In this document: one piece after another, positions 46,840 to 54,507 of the stretch
How the letters are laid out: the number at the start of each line of letters is the position of its first letter
Numbering within the stretch: position 1 is the first letter of the stretch
Assembly (NCBI GenBank): GCA_017443945.1
Contig: JAFSXS010000052.1
Coordinates: 11,160-75,159 of the forward strand
Length of the DNA stretch: 64,000 bases
Source of the DNA: Synergistaceae bacterium
GTDB taxonomy: Bacteria; Synergistota; Synergistia; Synergistales; Aminobacteriaceae
Direction of reading: 5' to 3'
Notes under the pieces: model-generated
Told to the model about the DNA's origin: nothing
Database searches by the model: none
Seen by the model: the letters and a program-made list of their open reading frames with translations, nothing else
Position numbers and translations under genes: made by a program

Positions 46840-46912
46840 GAATCGCTAGCTCAGTCGGTAGAGCACCGGACTTTTAATCCGGGTGTCGGGGGTTCAAGTC
46901 CCCCGCGATTCA
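46840..46912 (+). tRNA. tRNA-Lys (TTT)
   Basis: GAATCGCTAGCTCAGTCGGTAGAGCACCGGACTTTTAATCCGGGTGTCGGGGGTTCAAGTCCCCCGCGATTCA. Confidence 0.9.
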
Positions 46913-46929
46913 TCAGCAAAATACTTCTT

Positions 46930-47002
46930 GGTCCCATCGTCTAGAGGCCGAGGACACAGCCCTTTCAAGGCTGCGGCGCGGGTTCGAATCCCGCTGGGAC
47001 CG
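46930..47002 (+). tRNA. tRNA-Glu (TTC)
   Basis: GGTCCCATCGTCTAGAGGCCGAGGACACAGCCCTTTCAAGGCTG...GGGTTCGAATCCCGCTGGGACCG. Confidence 0.9.
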
Positions 47003-47090
47003 TTACAGAATCTCTCACGCAAATTAATTCATTCACGCAATATAATAAATAACCGCTCAATTTCCGCAATCAAGCGGCCATAATCGTGCG

Positions 47091-48581
47091 TTATTTGTTA
47101 AAGTTTAATTTTTCCTTGATGGTCTCGATTAAATTTTTCGTAGTCTCACCAGTTCCGAACTCGTCAAGAATTACACCGAATGCTTTGCGTAATAAACGTT
47201 TGCCGGACGCTGAAAGGGGCTTATCATTTACTGTCGGTTCTTGTGCGGGCTCCTGTTCGATATATTCTGCTACTTCACGCATTATTTCACTGTGAGATTT
47301 ACATTTTTCGATAGCGGCATTGTATTTCTCGATGTCTGATTTTGCATTAAGTATTTCGCCCTCAAGCTGCTGTTTTCGTTCGTCGTCGTGATAGAGTCCC
47401 TCGTCGAGCCTGTATTGATTATCGTCGATTATTTTCTCTGAGTCAGAAATTTTCTTGAGGCTGCTTCTGATTGCGGCGGCCTTCTTGTAGATTCCTGATA
47501 ATTTCGCAAAAATATTCTTCATCGCTGACTCAAATGCTGCACGGGCTGAATTTTCCTTCAGATATTCGCGGCTTGTGTTAGGGATTAACGCTCTTGACAC
47601 GCAGAATAATTCACCGGCGAAATAATGTATTGCTTTCTCTTCGGGAAATAAATTTTGTAAAGTGTCTTCGTCGCCGATTTGTATATTATCTTTACGGAGC
47701 CTGATACTTCGCATTTTGCAGTTTTCCTTGATTACAGCCTTGAATGATGACAAACTGTACCACATCCACGCAAATAAATTATTGTCTTTATCGCGAATGT
47801 CTAAAAATTTTATGCTCCTGATACTGTCATCGCCGTTTGATGTCGTAAATTCAGGCTTGTAGGGCTTGAATAACTGCTCATTGTTCAGGAAAATTTTATA
47901 TACGTCGATTTTGAGTCCGAGTCCCTCCGCGTGCTGGTGGATCTGCGACATGAACGGCGCGAAAGTCTCTGCATACGGTAAAGGCGCAATAAATGCAAGA
48001 TAATTTTTTACCCCGTCAACGTCAAGCAAATAGTTGTGTTCTTCGCTTATTCCGTCAAGTTCTGCGATAAAATAATGTCCGTCTGTATCATCTGTAAAAT
48101 CTTGCGAAAATTTATAAATCTGCTTCAAGACTTCATCAGCCGTCAATTTTTCTGTGCTCGAAGTCAACTCACGCATTAAAGCTGCATCGCAAGTTAAACG
48201 CGAAATCACCTGCTCGCCATTGAACTTGGCCGTAAATGTCAGAGTCTTACAGCAGGAAAGGCCGCAAAGTCTCCCGATACCGCGAAAACCTTTATCAACG
48301 TCTTTATTTTTCTCGGAGGCCGCTATACTTCCAAGAAGGCGCGCGAAATCATCAGCTTTGACTCCTGCTGCGTTGTCCTCAATTTTTATATTGCTGGAGT
48401 CCTTGTCGATAAAAATATTTATGCAGCCTTGATCCCTGCTCGAAAAAATATTTTCCCTGACTGCATTGTCAATCGAGTCGCACGCGTTCTGTATGTACTC
48501 GCGAAAAATTGACCATGAGGTTTTATACAGTGCTTCCGTCAAGCTCTCAAGGGCATTTGCTCCGATAATATAATCGCTCAT
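47091..48581 (-). CDS. Hsp90/GHKL-type (Bergerat-fold) ATPase with an uncharacterised ~300-aa C-terminal region; third gene of the NurA-HerA-GHKL operon
   Basis: It follows HtpG motif by motif: ALYKTSWSIFREYIQNACDSIDN (N box), IKIEDNAAGV (G1, with Ala for the first Gly), LGSIAASEK, GFRGIGRLCG (G2). There is a coiled-coil-like tail. SD AAGGAG lies 9 nt before the ATG. Confidence 0.75.
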   Translation of the reverse strand: MSDYIIGANALESLTEALYKTSWSIFREYIQNACDSIDNAVRENIFSSRDQGCINIFIDKDSSNIKIEDNAAGVKADDFARLLGSIAASEKNKDVDKGFRGIGRLCGLSCCKTLTFTAKFNGEQVISRLTCDAALMRELTSSTEKLTADEVLKQIYKFSQDFTDDTDGHYFIAELDGISEEHNYLLDVDGVKNYLAFIAPLPYAETFAPFMSQIHQHAEGLGLKIDVYKIFLNNEQLFKPYKPEFTTSNGDDSIRSIKFLDIRDKDNNLFAWMWYSLSSFKAVIKENCKMRSIRLRKDNIQIGDEDTLQNLFPEEKAIHYFAGELFCVSRALIPNTSREYLKENSARAAFESAMKNIFAKLSGIYKKAAAIRSSLKKISDSEKIIDDNQYRLDEGLYHDDERKQQLEGEILNAKSDIEKYNAAIEKCKSHSEIMREVAEYIEQEPAQEPTVNDKPLSASGKRLLRKAFGVILDEFGTGETTKNLIETIKEKLNFNK

Positions 48582-48602
48582 AAAAAATTTCTCCTTCCTG
48601 AT

Positions 48603-50252
48603 TTAATCATTAAATTGCTTATAAACCGGTTTCGGAAATCTCACGCGCAAAAGAGTCCTAAAAATTGGATTCTGTATCAAGTACTCGCCCTGTTCAAGAC
48701 GCGTTAAAATATTCTTGTAGGTGCTTGGGAAATTGCTGTAGTCATGATTTCCGGCTTCGAGCGCATTACTTCGGCCATAAGCATTTGTCGCGCAGTTTCC
48801 TGTTACTCGCGGATGAATCGCAGATCTAAATTGTTCAGCACCGAATAAAATTACTCCCATAGATCTCCCGCGTTCGGCAACGTCTAAAAGCTCGTGCAAA
48901 ATGGGTGAACTTCTTGCAACATCTTTCGAGGCATATTTATTAAGCTCGTCAATGAAGATTATTATTTTTTCGGGAGGATTCAAACCTTCATAGCTGCCCA
49001 GTTTTAAATTATAAATTGTCTTTAGTGCATCGCCGAAAACAAATGCCTGTTTGCTGCTGTCAAGTTTGGAAATGTCTATTACTTTGACTTCTCCGGGCTG
49101 TATCTGCCTTAACTCTTCAGAAAGCCTGCATTCATCTTTTGCGCTTGAACGCCTTGACTCAGATTTAAACATTTCATCATATTTTATAAACGTGTTAATG
49201 AGCCTGTAAAATTTTTGCCAGCTTACAGTTTTGATTCCTCCGTCAGCTTTTGTGGCACCTATCGAGAAATCATGTATAGTTTTAAGCAGCTGATCCCATG
49301 TTCTTACGCCTCTAAAATCGGGGTCTTCGTCGTCCATTATCTTGCTTATAATAGACTCCGTTGTCTGGTAAGAGTCATCTATGTCAGCAAATAGCATTTC
49401 TATACGTCCGCGATCATATTCGTATAAATATTTAAATTTTTTGAGCTTCTTATCTGCAATATACCGCTTTATATCATCATCAGGCAAATACGAGCTTGAT
49501 TTACTTTCTCTGTATGGGATGTAATAGCTGACGTTTGTGAAGGGCTTTGCTGTTAGTCCGATAGTTTCATATTCTTTGCGCTCACTCTCTGTTAAATCGT
49601 CGTTGGGCTGGTCTATTGCCATTAAATCGCGTCCCTTAACGTTAAATATTACAAATGAGACGTTATCGCCGTTCAACTGCTCTTGAATCGCCTTCAATAA
49701 GAACATTGAGTAAGAAGTCTTTGCAGCGAGTCCCGAAATTCCCGAAATATTCAAGTGCGCGCCATCAGGGCCGAGAACAAATTTTGAATCCAGATTTACA
49801 GGTAAAGAAAGCTCGCTTTTAGTCCCCGCATACATTGTGATATAACCGCATGTTAAAGGCTTCTGAATCTTATCGAGTCCAAGCGCAGTATTAATTTCTT
49901 CGGCTGAAGCAAGATAAACGGGCGCATTATTCCGGACTGGGGTATAAAATTTTCGAGTGTTCATTATTACATTTGCTGTGATGCAGTTCATTTCGACTCG
50001 TTCTGTCGGTGCCTCTGCTTTGAGATTCCCGAAATCGTTAGAAATATAACCCGTCAAAAAACTTGATGAGTCAGTTATGTGCGAAATATTTTCTATGCTC
50101 CCGTAAGTGTAAGACCCGCCGATATGTTCAACTTTTATAATATCGAATGCATGAATAGGAAGTGTTGAGCTTGTCCAGAAAATAAATTTGTCCATCGTTG
50201 TAGGGCTGGACTCTGTTGCTATTACCCTGCCGATAATACTTTTTGCTGCCAA
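48603..50252 (-). CDS. HerA/FtsK-superfamily ATPase (HAS-barrel + RecA-like core) with a deviant P-loop
   Basis: IGRVIATESSP...FDIIKVEH (HAS-barrel-like), HLNISGISGLAAKTSY (P-loop position), VKVIDISKL...FVFGDALKTIY, Walker B IIIFIDELNKY, GVILFGAEQFRSAIHPRV. TTG start with GGAGG 9 nt upstream. Confidence 0.75.
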   Translation of the reverse strand: MAAKSIIGRVIATESSPTTMDKFIFWTSSTLPIHAFDIIKVEHIGGSYTYGSIENISHITDSSSFLTGYISNDFGNLKAEAPTERVEMNCITANVIMNTRKFYTPVRNNAPVYLASAEEINTALGLDKIQKPLTCGYITMYAGTKSELSLPVNLDSKFVLGPDGAHLNISGISGLAAKTSYSMFLLKAIQEQLNGDNVSFVIFNVKGRDLMAIDQPNDDLTESERKEYETIGLTAKPFTNVSYYIPYRESKSSSYLPDDDIKRYIADKKLKKFKYLYEYDRGRIEMLFADIDDSYQTTESIISKIMDDEDPDFRGVRTWDQLLKTIHDFSIGATKADGGIKTVSWQKFYRLINTFIKYDEMFKSESRRSSAKDECRLSEELRQIQPGEVKVIDISKLDSSKQAFVFGDALKTIYNLKLGSYEGLNPPEKIIIFIDELNKYASKDVARSSPILHELLDVAERGRSMGVILFGAEQFRSAIHPRVTGNCATNAYGRSNALEAGNHDYSNFPSTYKNILTRLEQGEYLIQNPIFRTLLRVRFPKPVYKQFND

Positions 50253-50278
50253 TGCAAATTACCTCCTGTTAAAAATTT

Positions 50279-51388
50279 TTAGAATATCTGCAAGAAAGTT
50301 TTTGCGCTGATATATTTTGATTTAATATACTGTTCTGTCAAATATGACGGATAAATATAATTTGCCCAGTTCGAGTCTTTGCCCATACAGACGGGGCTGC
50401 GTTCGTTGAGCATAAATGCGCTTAATTTGTTAATTTCTTGAGTCGTTATAGATTCAGTGTCGGACGATAAAATTTTTTCGAGCTTTATTACTCCGTCAAA
50501 TACTGAATGAGTGCGCCTCTTGTCATGCATTCTCAAGTACCAGACAATAATTTTTTTGTCGCCTAAGATTTCGGGATTCGTGAATAATGCCGCCTGAGTC
50601 CTGTTATATAAGGGCAATTCAGCAATATAAAGCGGGTCGGGCTGTCCGTGAGAATTTATGCAGATTTCGGGATTAAAATTTTTCACGACTCCCAGAACGT
50701 AATTATAATTGTTAGAGTCAACATCTTTTGCGTAAAGGCTTTCGAGAGTCCCGTCTTTGACTAAATAATTTGTGTCTGATAATAAATTTTTTTCCGTGAG
50801 ATATTCTATTAATTTGATCTCGTAGCTTCTTGAACGCGATAAAATTTTATCTCTTGCTCGATCGTCTAATAATTTTGTTCCAGCGTCTAAAGTCGAATAA
50901 TTCAGCACGACAGAAATTTTTAAATCGCCGGATAATGAGTCATTTAATTTTTGCTTGAGTTCCGAGAAAAATTTTTTCTGCCCGTCAAAATTTGCTACGT
51001 CTGGAAGAGCTATTACTATTTCATGTTGATATATGAAGGGTAATAATTTTTTTGCTGTTCTTTTGCAGCAGGCGACTCCGATTTGGCCGGCTATTATGGG
51101 ATAAATTTTTTGTGAGTAAACAATGTCGTCAACTTTGTAATTTTGTCTTGCGCTGTCGATGAAATAATTTAAAATCTGCTTGTCTGAACGTGATAATTTT
51201 TCGCTTTCTGACTTAATGTCTATATATTTTGTGTCTGTTGAAGATTCTGCGTTCCTGAGCCAAACGCCGCCGGAGGAGTCTTCGTTTTCTTGTTCATGCT
51301 CTAATGAGTCAGCGCTAATTTTTTCGACTCTGTAGCTTGAGCCGTGAGTCTCACGTTCTATAATGTCAATTAATCCGCTGTGAGTCAT
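50279..51388 (-). CDS. NurA-like (RNase-H-fold) nuclease candidate; first gene of the operon
   Basis: The motifs occur in NurA order: SYEIKLIEY, then about 20 aa, then YLVKDGTLE, VLGVVKNF, IIVWYLRMH...GVIKLE, NYIYPSYLTEQY. The first catalytic Asp is not confidently placed. SD GGAG lies upstream of the ATG. Confidence 0.5.
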   Translation of the reverse strand: MTHSGLIDIIERETHGSSYRVEKISADSLEHEQENEDSSGGVWLRNAESSTDTKYIDIKSESEKLSRSDKQILNYFIDSARQNYKVDDIVYSQKIYPIIAGQIGVACCKRTAKKLLPFIYQHEIVIALPDVANFDGQKKFFSELKQKLNDSLSGDLKISVVLNYSTLDAGTKLLDDRARDKILSRSRSYEIKLIEYLTEKNLLSDTNYLVKDGTLESLYAKDVDSNNYNYVLGVVKNFNPEICINSHGQPDPLYIAELPLYNRTQAALFTNPEILGDKKIIVWYLRMHDKRRTHSVFDGVIKLEKILSSDTESITTQEINKLSAFMLNERSPVCMGKDSNWANYIYPSYLTEQYIKSKYISAKTFLQIF

Positions 51389-51670
51389 GAAATTTTCTCC
51401 TGTTTTGATTTCGATAGGATTAAATTATTATAACATAGAAATTTTTAGTGATATAATAATTCGCAACTTCCCATAAACTTTATGAATCAAAGAAAAATAT
51501 TTTACTAATACTTTTGCTAATACAAAAAATTTAAATTTTTATGGTTGCAGCAAATATTTACGCTGGAAAAAATTTTTATAACGTGCGAAAAAATTTACGC
51601 GGCTGTATGTTCGATACATTTAAATATTCTGTAAAAACTTTTGCATAAACGCGACTCCAGACTATAAACC

Positions 51671-51685
51671 GGGTGGGTGGGTGGG
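51671..51685 (+). other. canonical G-quadruplex motif GGGTGGGTGGGTGGG
   Basis: Read directly. It lies in the 512-bp gap between clpB and the NurA-like gene. A second copy is at 61724-61739. Confidence 0.85.
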
Positions 51686-51841
51686 ATTAACCAATTAAAA
51701 CTCGGACTCAGAATCCTCTGTGAAGTTACGAAATATGAGAAAATGTTTTCTTGCTACGACCAATCGGCACTGTTTGCAAAAAAGGTTTTCGCTTTTGCCT
51801 TTGCCTGTATAGATTTAAAGTGTTTTCAGTATAATTATGCG

Positions 51842-51871
51842 CAAAAAATAGGGAAGGACTCAATCCCTCCC
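51842..51871 (-). terminator. intrinsic terminator of clpB
   Basis: On the minus strand, GGGAGGG pairs with CCTTCCC (one G.U pair), followed by TATTTTTT. Confidence 0.65.
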
Positions 51872-51900
51872 TTAAAGTATCGCATAAAAATTTTATTCAT

Positions 51901-54507
51901 TTATTCGAACGAGAAAATTAATTCTCCTGCTTTAACGTCAATATTTACACGAGTCTTTTCTCGGATTCCTCCGGCAATTAATGCACGCGCTAATTTCGTT
52001 TCTACATTGTGAGTGATATAACGCTTCAACGGCCTTGCACCGTAAACAGGATCATAACCTGCCGACGCGATAAAGGCCAATGCTTCATCAGAAAAATTTA
52101 ATTCGATCTGACGTTCTGCGAGCCTCTCTGACAAACGGGAAAGCAAAATTTTCACGATTGATTTCACTTCATCCTGCGTCAATGGCTTAAAGAATACTAT
52201 ATCATCAACTCTATTCAGAAATTCCGGCCTAAAATGTTCCCTCAATGCCTGCATAACTTCCTCGCGCGCTGATAATGCAATAGTATCGCCTACAATATTA
52301 TCAAGCAAAATCTGCGAGCCTATATTACTTGTCATGATAATAACTGTATTCTTGAAGTCTACTAAATGGCCGTGAGAGTCTGTTATTCTGCCGTCGTCCA
52401 AAACTTGCAGCAAAATATTAAACACGTCCGGATGAGCCTTCTCGATCTCGTCAAATAATATAACGCTGTAGGGTCTGCGCCTGACTGCTTCTGTTAATTG
52501 TCCGCCCTCGTCGTAACCTACATAGCCGGGGGGTGCTCCTACTAAACGCGAGACAGAATGTTTCTCCATATATTCGCTCATATCGATACGAATCATATTT
52601 TCTTCGCTGTCAAAGAGTGCTTCTGCGAGAGTCCTTGCGAGTTCAGTTTTTCCGACTCCTGTTGGCCCTAAGAATATAAATGAACCGATCGGGCGCTTTG
52701 GATCCTTTATTCCGCTTCGTGCGCGCAAAACTGCATCGGCTACGAGATTTACAGCTTCGTTTTGACCCACGACTCTTTTGTGTAAAATTTCGTCGAGCTT
52801 TAATAATTTTTCGCGTTCACCCTCTAATAACCGCGTTACAGGAATACCAGTCCAGCGGCTTACGATGTCGGCGATTTCGTCTTCTGTTACTTCTTCACGT
52901 AATAATTTCTTGCTGTCTGAGTCTGATTCTGATTTAACTTTCTCGGCAGCCTTTAATGACTCTTCTAATTCGCGCAATTTTCCATAACGTAATTCAGCAG
53001 CTTTGTTCAAATTATATTCACGTTCGGCGCGTTCGATTTCTGATTTAACGTTTTCGATCTGCGAGCGTAAATCCCTGATTCCGGAAATAGATTTTTTCTC
53101 GGCCTCATATTTTGCGCGTAAAGTATCAGCCTGCGTGCGTGCCTCCTGTAATTCTTCCTGCAATTTTTCGAGTCTTTCTTTGGAAGCGTCGTCGCTCTCG
53201 TGCTTTAATGCTGTCTCCTCGATTTCTAACTGCATAACTTTTCTTGATGCTGCGTCGAGTTCTGAAGGCTGCGAGTCAATTTCCGTGCGCAACATTGCAC
53301 ATGCTTCATCGACTAAATCAATTGCTTTATCTGGCAAAAATCTATTTGTTATATAACGATTCGAGAGTACAGCCGCACTCACAAGCGCATTATCACGAAT
53401 TACGACTCCGTGATGAACTTGCAATTTTTCACGAATCCCGCGCAAAATTGAAATTGTATCCTCGACTGAAGGCTGTTCAACGTCAACAGGCTGGAATCTT
53501 CGGGCAAGTGCTGCGTCTTTCTCGATATATTTGCGATATTCATCAACTGTAGTTGCGCCTATACAGTGAAGTTCACCGCGTGCGAGCATAGGTTTTAACA
53601 TGTTGCCTGCGTCGACTGCTCCTTCTGCTGCACCTGCTCCGACTATAGTGTGAAGTTCATCGATAAATAATAAGATTCGTCCGTCAGAGTTCTTTATCTC
53701 GTTTAGTACGGCTTTGAGTCGTTCTTCAAATTCACCGCGATATTTTGCACCCGCAATTAATGACCCCATATCAAGAGCAAAAACTGTACGATCCTTCAAG
53801 CCTTCGGGAACATCACCGCGCACGATTCTTTGTGCAAGACCTTCAACTATTGCTGTTTTACCGACTCCGGGATCGCCGATTAAGACGGGATTATTTTTTG
53901 TTTTGCGCGATAAAATTCTGATTACGCGTCTAATTTCGTCATCACGTCCGATAACGGGATCTAATTTTCCGTTTTTAGCAGCTTCTACTAAATCGCGGCC
54001 GTATTTTTCTAGTGCTTGATATGTTGCTTCAGGGTCTGCGCTTTGGACTCTTTGTGAGCCGCGTACAGAATTTAGAGTCTGTAAAAATTTTTCTTCTGTA
54101 ATGCCCAGCCGTGAAAAGATTCTGCCTGAAGGTGTATTACTGCCTTCACTCAACATAGCTAAAAATATATGTTCGACTGATGTATATTCGTCTTTGAGAG
54201 ATTTTGCGCGTTCGTCTGCACGATTTAATAAACGTTCGAGTCTTTGAGTGATGTAAATTTTTCCTTCCTCGACGCCCGAACCTGTAACTCTAGGCAATTT
54301 CGATAATTCGTCGTCTACAGATTTTGCGAGCGCACTTGTATTCACTCCCATACGCTTTAATAGTTGATTAATCAAGCCTTCTGAATCTTTTAACAATGCT
54401 GCTAATAAATGTTCTGTATCTACCTGCTGATGATTATATTCTGATGCTATTGCGCTTGCCTGCTGTAGTGCTTCTTGACTCTTGCGTGTTAATTTCTCTG
54501 CTGCCAT
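51901..54507 (-). CDS. clpB: ATP-dependent chaperone ClpB
   Basis: 868 aa with two AAA+ modules ([16 protein letters not shown]), a long middle coiled coil, and a Clp N-domain. Confidence 0.97.

Follow-up and report, generated by a model that had tools for sequence, protein, structure and literature searches.

In the 64,000-nucleotide stretch of Synergistaceae contig JAFSXS010000052.1 analysed here (hereafter the window), a compact minus-strand operon encodes a predicted NurA-like nuclease, a HerA-type ATPase and an Hsp90-like ATPase of the GHKL superfamily, and comparison with related loci identifies it as a reduced form, with three genes, of a cassette that normally has four and is both widespread and horizontally mobile. 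The layout of the original prediction, made from the letters alone, was recovered exactly in the open reading frame (ORF) list and the start regions, with gaps of 26 nt between genes 1 and 2 and 21 nt between genes 2 and 3, and an AGGAG-type Shine-Dalgarno (SD) sequence of its own about 9 nt 5' of each start; the peptide motifs it had quoted were likewise all found in the translations. The genes are as follows:

50279-51388, minus strand: gene 1, predicted NurA-fold (RNase H-like) nuclease, 369 aa, ATG start
48603-50252, minus strand: gene 2, predicted bacterial-type HerA hexameric translocase ATPase, 549 aa, TTG start
47091-48581, minus strand: gene 3, Hsp90-like GHKL ATPase, 496 aa, ATG start

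Among the three proteins, only that of gene 3 received a significant match in the curated libraries (Pfam, NCBIfam, PHROGs and PADLOC). Sequence searches of Pfam, PADLOC, NCBIfam and PDB with gene 1 (100% identical to MBQ7577667.1) returned nothing significant, and the Pfam NurA model did not match it at E-values up to 1, while weak matches to DUF4306 and TapR were at chance level and were set aside. Its AlphaFold2 (AF2) model (predicted local distance difference test, pLDDT, 79.7; predicted template modelling score, pTM, 0.79) found as its best PDB matches by Foldseek the NurA of Deinococcus (7f6d_G, E 5.6e-13, TM 0.55-0.60) and, second, that of Sulfolobus (2ygk_A, E 7.3e-9), the remaining matches (Ago, EndoV) having E-values above 1e-3; a UniRef homologue, P0111, is labelled "NurA domain-containing". 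As modelled, gene 1 has the NurA fold that had been proposed for it from its motifs. Five acidic residues are invariant in the family (D78, E216, E304, E329 and E352) and D212 is present in 82 of the 85 sequences, all six being kept in the window; judging from the alignment, they would fit a metal-dependent RNase H-like nuclease, with their placement in a NurA active site predicted.

The HerA assignment of gene 2 stood up to a search by phmmer against all PDB chains, in which the sole match was the HerA of Deinococcus radiodurans (7f6d_B, E 1.7e-36), aligned in two stretches (residues 99-248 and 388-545). The two proteins have in common a deviant P-loop, NISGISG[LV]A[AT]KTS, and the Walker B motif DELNKYA, represented in the window by GISGLAAKTS and FIDELNKY together with FGAEQFRS; across 79 gene 2 homologues GISGLA[AS]KTS and F[IV]DELNK are invariant, and gene 1 lies directly upstream of gene 2 in every intact locus. 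On this homology gene 2 is classed as a bacterial HerA. Searching Pfam-A gave nothing at E-values up to 1, and neither Pfam nor NCBIfam yielded a significant HerA or DUF87 match (NCBIfam helicase_HerA reached only 0.068); the PADLOC matches, to mad8 (5.5e-6) and HerA (7e-3), were both weak. The profile libraries seem to cover the bacterial NurA-linked HerA clade poorly.

Gene 3, suggested earlier to be of Hsp90/GHKL type, matches Pfam HATPase_c_3 (E 4.3e-11), and its AF2 model, built on 40 homologues (pLDDT 85.6), matched TRAP1, Hsp90, Grp94 and HtpG in Foldseek (E 5e-14 to 5e-11, TM 0.44-0.48) over alignments of 400-550 columns. The model predicts a Bergerat N-domain, an Hsp90-like middle domain and then long helices (residues 345-491), so that the roughly 300 residues initially described as uncharacterised are better read as an Hsp90-like middle domain plus helices; no Hsp90 C-terminal domain was found in the model, the C-terminus consisting of the long helices. 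Coiled-coil matches to ZorA, JetC, YceG and dynactin were at chance level. The ATP-binding motifs ExxxNxxD (EYIQNACD), DN[AG]xG and GFRGIGR are invariant in 69 homologues, and the NCBIfam HtpG model scored 38 bits, against a cut-off of 371, over residues 11-92 only. Gene 3 is thus Hsp90-like in fold and is not an HtpG orthologue.

The neighbourhoods of gene 1 homologues revealed a fourth component that the original prediction had missed. The order NurA, HerA, GHKL ATPase, radical-SAM protein occurs in Heliomicrobium modesticaldum, Dehalococcoides mccartyi, a Methanomicrobiales archaeon and a Synergistaceae contig, the fourth gene encoding about 600 aa and its start overlapping or abutting the stop of the GHKL gene. 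In this fourth protein a radical-SAM core, whose CxxxCxxC is invariant, is joined to an N-terminal domain resembling B12-binding domains (Pfam PF04055 at ~1e-6 and PF02310 at ~1e-4; weak NCBIfam matches to B12-radical-SAM families), and sequence and profile searches of the PDB found no relative of it. Its family comprises at least 6,824 clusters at 90% identity, of which all the source names displayed read "hypothetical protein".

To quantify this association we relied on a scan of one genome per GTDB species, in which relatives of gene 1 were present in 402 of 185,579 species genomes; 80 loci were sampled from it, and 63 had enough downstream DNA to be informative. All four genes occur in order at 54 of the 63, in many bacterial phyla and a methanogen, with a split or partial radical-SAM match at three and variant arrangements at six. 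The three genes proposed as a unit are indeed co-conserved, in an order shared at other loci, but the usual unit has four genes. Among the variants, L070 and L075 (including Paenibacillus solanacearum) have no radical-SAM gene 3' of the GHKL gene and instead carry a 638-aa B12-radical-SAM gene directly upstream of NurA, whose product is distantly related to the usual fourth protein and belongs to its family (hhalign probability 97.8%, E 8e-13). In L046 a 279-aa ORF unrelated to gene 3 (L046:12858-13697, hhalign probability 0.1%) takes the GHKL position, and in L025, which probably has a similar arrangement, tblastn found no gene 3 homologue. The association of the NurA-HerA module with this radical-SAM family is therefore robust. 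Two further observations concern the same loci: L070 (a Bacillota metagenome-assembled genome, or MAG; L070:6492-9732) and L075 (L075:6494-9726) also carry a 440-aa protein without a Pfam match upstream and a large serine recombinase downstream of the cassette, and the L046 ORF, behind which the radical-SAM gene keeps its usual place, has a CxxC...HTHH stretch that recalls HNH nucleases.

In the window, tblastn across the 64 kb found neither a radical-SAM homologue nor a remnant of one, and gene 3 is separated from the adjacent tRNA-Glu gene by 87 nt. The features around the operon are:

51901-54507, minus strand: clpB, the upstream flank of the cassette slot in Synergistaceae (ORF list and comparison with relatives)
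51850-51872, minus strand: intrinsic-terminator-like hairpin of clpB (10-bp stem, 5 GC pairs, T-run)
51389-51900, no strand: AT-rich spacer of 512 bp between clpB and gene 1, holding no convincing ORF
51427-51435, minus strand: extended -10-like element TGtTATAAT, candidate operon promoter (direct reading of the sequence)
47049-47081, minus strand: terminator-like hairpin directly 3' of gene 3, where most relatives have the radical-SAM gene
46929-47003, plus strand: tRNA-Glu(ttc), downstream flank of the slot (Rfam)
46840-46912, plus strand: tRNA-Lys(ttt), downstream flank of the slot (Rfam)

The slot formed by clpB, the cassette and the tRNA-Glu and tRNA-Lys genes is common to five Synergistaceae genomes, and the same tRNA pair lies 3' of the cassette in L006, L030, L034 and L100. 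This changes the meaning of the tRNA adjacency, which had been taken to fit an accessory system: in Synergistaceae, clpB and the tRNA pair form an ancestral flank that has been conserved, and they do not point to a recent insertion. Insertion of a genomic island at a tRNA site was rejected, since only short AT-rich chance matches were found as att-like repeats around the operon, the ORF list of the window holds no integrase, and relatives have the same clpB and tRNA flanks. The base composition of the operon is no different from that of its flanks; the earlier remarks on composition and on the missing integrase were both borne out. In L006 and L007, representing the closest syntenic relative, the interval from the tRNA pair to the SDF transporter genes holds an AAA_24 (PF13479) ATPase gene (L006:14670-15539, L007:13813-14682), a position at which the window has nothing.

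As described initially, the 512-bp spacer is AT-rich (GC ~0.34-0.35, vs. ~0.37-0.42 in the genes). The extended -10 is present at 51435-51427 on the minus strand, as had been read, but a two-hexamer scan scored no -35 match to accompany it. The spacer is also longer than the ~110-155 nt separating clpB and gene 1 in L006, L030 and L034, and its extra ~350 AT-rich bases hold no convincing ORF and no Rfam match (the Rfam scan of the whole window returned tRNAs only). A remnant of a small helix-turn-helix (HTH) regulator was considered there and rejected, the HTH_17-type match (28% over 35 aa) being non-significant at E 0.04 in a database of 512 bp.

Within this slot, cassette proteins and flanking ClpB differ strongly in their identity to the window:

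L006: ClpB 94%, NurA 52%, HerA 73%, GHKL 60%
L011: ClpB 94%, NurA 53%, HerA 68%, GHKL 60%
L034: ClpB 90%, NurA 44%, HerA 61%, GHKL 45%
L030: ClpB 82%, NurA 44%, HerA 61%, GHKL 47%

There are two ways to account for this, far quicker evolution of the cassette than of its flanks or the swapping in of divergent alleles by recombination; both are typical for immune loci and would be unusual for genes of housekeeping repair. In this set, L034 has an intact radical-SAM gene; that of L030 carries multiple lesions, that of L010 a stop codon and that of L011, which is near-identical to L010, a frameshift, and the gene is absent from the window and from L006/L007, L100, L101 and L091. Some of these "pseudogene" lesions lie in metagenome assemblies and could be assembly errors; the recurrence of the pattern and the clean deletions speak for a real loss.

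The clade that lacks the radical-SAM gene also stands out at sites that are at least 97% conserved elsewhere, with replacements at 11-18 of 68 such sites in NurA and 14-20 of 177 in HerA, compared to a median of 0 elsewhere, and only 3-4 of 56 in the GHKL protein. The Asp of the KDGS motif, a probable catalytic residue, is Ser in L006, L010 and L011 and is kept in the window. In L100, a strain near-identical to that of the window, gene 1 (L100:3224-4360) carries a GAA-to-TAA nonsense change at the invariant E352 (window 50333-50335) that removes the last 18 residues, while at the protein level genes 2 and 3 and clpB show no difference from the window (100% identity); this is either a natural null allele or an assembly error. 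The ratio of non-synonymous to synonymous changes (dN/dS) between the window and the 99%-identical strain L101 is 0.11, 0.10 and 0.06 for genes 1-3, based on 4-6 non-synonymous changes per gene, and for gene 3 it is 0.078 at a dS of 0.52 vs. L091 (92% identical, also without the radical-SAM gene). The three genes are under purifying selection.

Beyond the Synergistaceae, the relatives of gene 1 are scattered over many phyla and the archaea, and their hosts are almost all anaerobes: Lachnospiraceae, Oscillospiraceae, Selenomonadaceae, Desulfosporosinus, Desulfitobacterium and Heliomicrobium, as well as Dehalococcoides, Synergistota, Treponema, Bacteroidota, termite-gut Planctomycetaceae, Desulfovibrionaceae and a methanogen. 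Similarity among cassettes cuts across taxonomy, with the Methanomicrobiales and Heliomicrobium copies 81, 80 and 68% identical in genes 1-3 and 76% in the radical-SAM protein. The four cassette proteins of L015, a MAG binned as Parabacteroides, are 95-99% identical to those of L001 (Heliomicrobium modesticaldum), which points either to a very recent transfer or to a mis-binned 8-kb contig.

The surroundings of the cassette are variable. No additional conserved neighbour gene emerged from the 145 ORFs flanking 37 loci (169 Pfam families), and the commonest flanking families, tallied as raw counts without a genomic background, were Schlafen/AlbA_2, serine recombinases, ResIII, HATPase_c_4, the DUF1016/YhcG nuclease and the IS21 IstB protein; PADLOC matches among the same ORFs, counted likewise, included pAgo (three, best E 1e-48), PDC-S02 (three), PD-DExK (three) and mad3 (three). 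A small HTH gene abuts NurA in about one quarter of the loci and comes from unrelated HTH families, being of the Xre type in some and of the HTH_17/excisionase type in others. Eight IMG/VR contigs carry a gene 1 relative, seven of them with the whole cassette, and the cassette flanks on these contigs include CI-like repressors, integrases, excisionases and DNA methyltransferases. Overall, this genomic context is what one would look for in an accessory conflict module that spreads by lateral transfer.

We next compared the cassette with characterized systems. The solved bacterial NurA-HerA end-resection complex, DR_0836/DR_0837 of Deinococcus radiodurans (PDB 7F6D; PMC9960219), resembles the pair described here in the modelled fold of gene 1, the homology of gene 2 (1.7e-36) with its P-loop NISGISGxAxKTS and Walker B DELNKYA, and the position of nurA directly upstream of herA. 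Unlike that complex, however, the pair is linked here to an Hsp90-like GHKL protein and normally also to a B12-type radical-SAM protein, its NurA is too divergent for the Pfam NurA model, and the cassette is distributed patchily, being mobile and hyperdivergent instead of lineage-stable. The Sir2-HerA and DUF4297-HerA anti-phage systems (PMC11291478, PMC11472057, PMC11514289) likewise combine a hexameric ATPase of the HerA family with an effector from the same operon, and are similarly mobile and associated with defence islands, but here the effector is NurA instead of Sir2 or a Cap4-like DUF4297 protein, the GHKL and radical-SAM components are extra, and gene 2 has only a marginal PADLOC HerA match (7e-3) and no PDB sequence match to those HerAs.

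In combining a GHKL ATPase that has a second alpha/beta domain with a DNA motor ATPase and a nuclease in a laterally mobile unit, the cassette also recalls the restriction-modification (R-M)-like operons with MORC/paraMORC GHKL ATPases, for which Iyer, Abhiman and Aravind (2008; PMC2292703) proposed the role of a clamp or looping engine driven by ATP. It differs from them in that the GHKL protein has Hsp90/TRAP1, rather than MORC or MutL, as its closest structural match, a HerA hexamer serves as motor in place of a superfamily 2 (SF2) helicase, the nuclease is NurA and not of the restriction-endonuclease fold or HNH type, and the putative modification enzyme is a radical-SAM protein and not a DNA methylase; PMC2292703 mentions neither HerA nor radical SAM. 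A likeness to the methylation-associated defence system (MADS) consists of the best PADLOC match of gene 2 (mad8, 5.5e-6) and of mad3 in three flanking ORFs at other loci, but the mad8 match is weak and reflects a partial P-loop similarity (residues 175-482 vs. 43-240 of 314), none of the MADS models matches gene 1 or gene 3, and the operon has no methyltransferase. No named or candidate system of PADLOC-DB v2 matched the operon, with no match for gene 1, a chance-level coiled-coil match for gene 3 and the weak mad8 and HerA matches for gene 2. The full-text literature outside subscription-only articles yielded no report of NurA and HerA with a GHKL ATPase or a radical-SAM protein, and PMC10853773 and PMC4158269 do not cover the four-gene set. 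The expectation that the three genes would match no named system was thus upheld, and the cassette, related to HerA-driven nuclease modules and to GHKL-containing R-M-like systems, is apparently unnamed.

By analogy with the Deinococcus and archaeal complexes, a HerA hexamer would dock a NurA dimer, thread DNA ends through its pore at the expense of ATP and pass them to NurA, whose active sites would degrade them processively. The GHKL protein, if dimeric like the Hsp90, MutL and MORC members of its superfamily, could serve as an ATP-gated clamp or sensor that licenses or targets this nuclease motor. In the full cassette, it is tempting to speculate that the radical-SAM enzyme, whose gene is coupled in translation to that of the GHKL protein, contributes a chemical mark or product that the system needs, most plausibly a self/non-self modification of DNA. 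In the lineage of the window, from which this enzyme is gone, the three remaining proteins probably operate in an altered, possibly attenuated and modification-independent mode, as the loss of the radical-SAM gene was followed by changes at many otherwise invariant NurA and HerA positions. This burst of change, the loss of the KDGS Asp in sister lineages and the nonsense allele of L100 would be expected if an orphaned nuclease motor were being attenuated or retuned. A simple "protective methylase" model is not established, because the NurA of the window keeps all the candidate catalytic residues.

Our judgement leans slightly toward reading the operon as a reduced derivative of the four-gene cassette whose role is most likely in conflict with foreign DNA, phage or plasmid, rather than in housekeeping repair, the defence function being suggested by genomic context. 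Several points weigh against it: the case for defence is built on that context, in part on flank tallies that are raw counts; if the radical-SAM enzyme made a protective mark on self DNA, losing it while keeping an intact nuclease, as in the window with its D212, would be expected to be toxic; the position in the Synergistaceae chromosome is stable, without integrase or att repeats; and the closest characterized relatives, the Deinococcus and archaeal NurA-HerA enzymes, act in DNA repair. To these are added the missing PDB relative of the radical-SAM enzyme, possible assembly errors behind some of its lesions, the few substitutions underlying the L101 comparison and the truncated NurA of L100. 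The stable position between clpB and the tRNAs, kept across Synergistaceae with a ClpB of 82-94% identity and without integrase or repeats, together with the repair-type Deinococcus HerA as the only PDB match of gene 2 (unusual P-loop included) and the Deinococcus NurA as the best match of gene 1, is what speaks for an accessory module of double-strand-break repair, in which NurA-HerA would resect ends, the GHKL protein would act as a repair clamp and the radical-SAM enzyme would reverse or process a DNA lesion (cf. spore-photoproduct lyase), leaving a resident operon under purifying selection in Synergistaceae. We think this improbable: a repair module would have to be reconciled with a distribution of 402 among 185,579 species genomes, scattered over phyla and domains at high identity, with variable flanks rich in mobile genetic element (MGE) or defence genes, with copies on prophage-like contigs, with an optional Xre- or excisionase-type regulator gene in some copies, and with cassette proteins only 44-73% identical next to a ClpB of 82-94%; Mre11/Rad50 and other repair partners are missing.

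That the three genes are a functionless relic heading toward pseudogenes after the loss of the radical-SAM gene appears rather more doubtful still. Throughout the clade this gene is gone or a pseudogene, many NurA and HerA sites that do not vary elsewhere have changed, the KDGS Asp is Ser in the nearest relatives (L006, L010 and L011) and E352 has become a stop codon in L100, all of which such decay would explain; yet the three ORFs of the window are intact with their SDs, ATPase motifs and gene 1 acidic residues, dN/dS is low (0.06-0.11 vs. L101, and the value for gene 3 vs. L091), and the three-gene state persists across lineages 52-73% identical (window vs. L006). Least probable, and in our opinion very unlikely, is a function for the mobile elements themselves, with a HerA/FtsK-type pump and nuclease processing, packaging or replicating the DNA of prophages or integrative and conjugative elements (ICEs) and the Synergistaceae copy as a domesticated remnant. 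ATPases of this type do pump DNA in viruses and in conjugation (general knowledge; PMC4158269), and predicted viral contigs carry the cassette, a T7-like replication module being present on one of them, but on these contigs it sits beside repressor, integrase and excisionase genes, a cargo position, and not among structural or packaging genes, and most copies are chromosomal without phage genes, as is the window operon, around which no MGE genes were found.

Within the reading as a conflict module, a more specific scenario is one that we put forward only tentatively and would not expect to hold in full. The complete cassette may be an anaerobe-specific immune system of a class not recognised before, in which the B12 radical-SAM enzyme marks self DNA or makes an antiviral product, and the Hsp90-like clamp reads this state and licenses NurA-HerA to shred invading DNA that lacks the mark; the lineage of the window would then have a retuned motor, or tolerance, without the radical-SAM enzyme.

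NurA-HerA is known as a repair machine, and to our knowledge the HerA proteins described from defence systems all work with Sir2 or DUF4297 effectors. The Synergistaceae series, in which the radical-SAM gene goes from intact to pseudogene to deleted at one slot, offers natural variants for probing the fourth component. The cassette is common among anaerobes of the gut, the rumen and the subsurface, and if its role is indeed in defence, an oxygen-sensitive radical enzyme would join the chemistry of self/non-self discrimination and a prokaryotic relative of Hsp90 would gain a role in nucleic-acid conflict.

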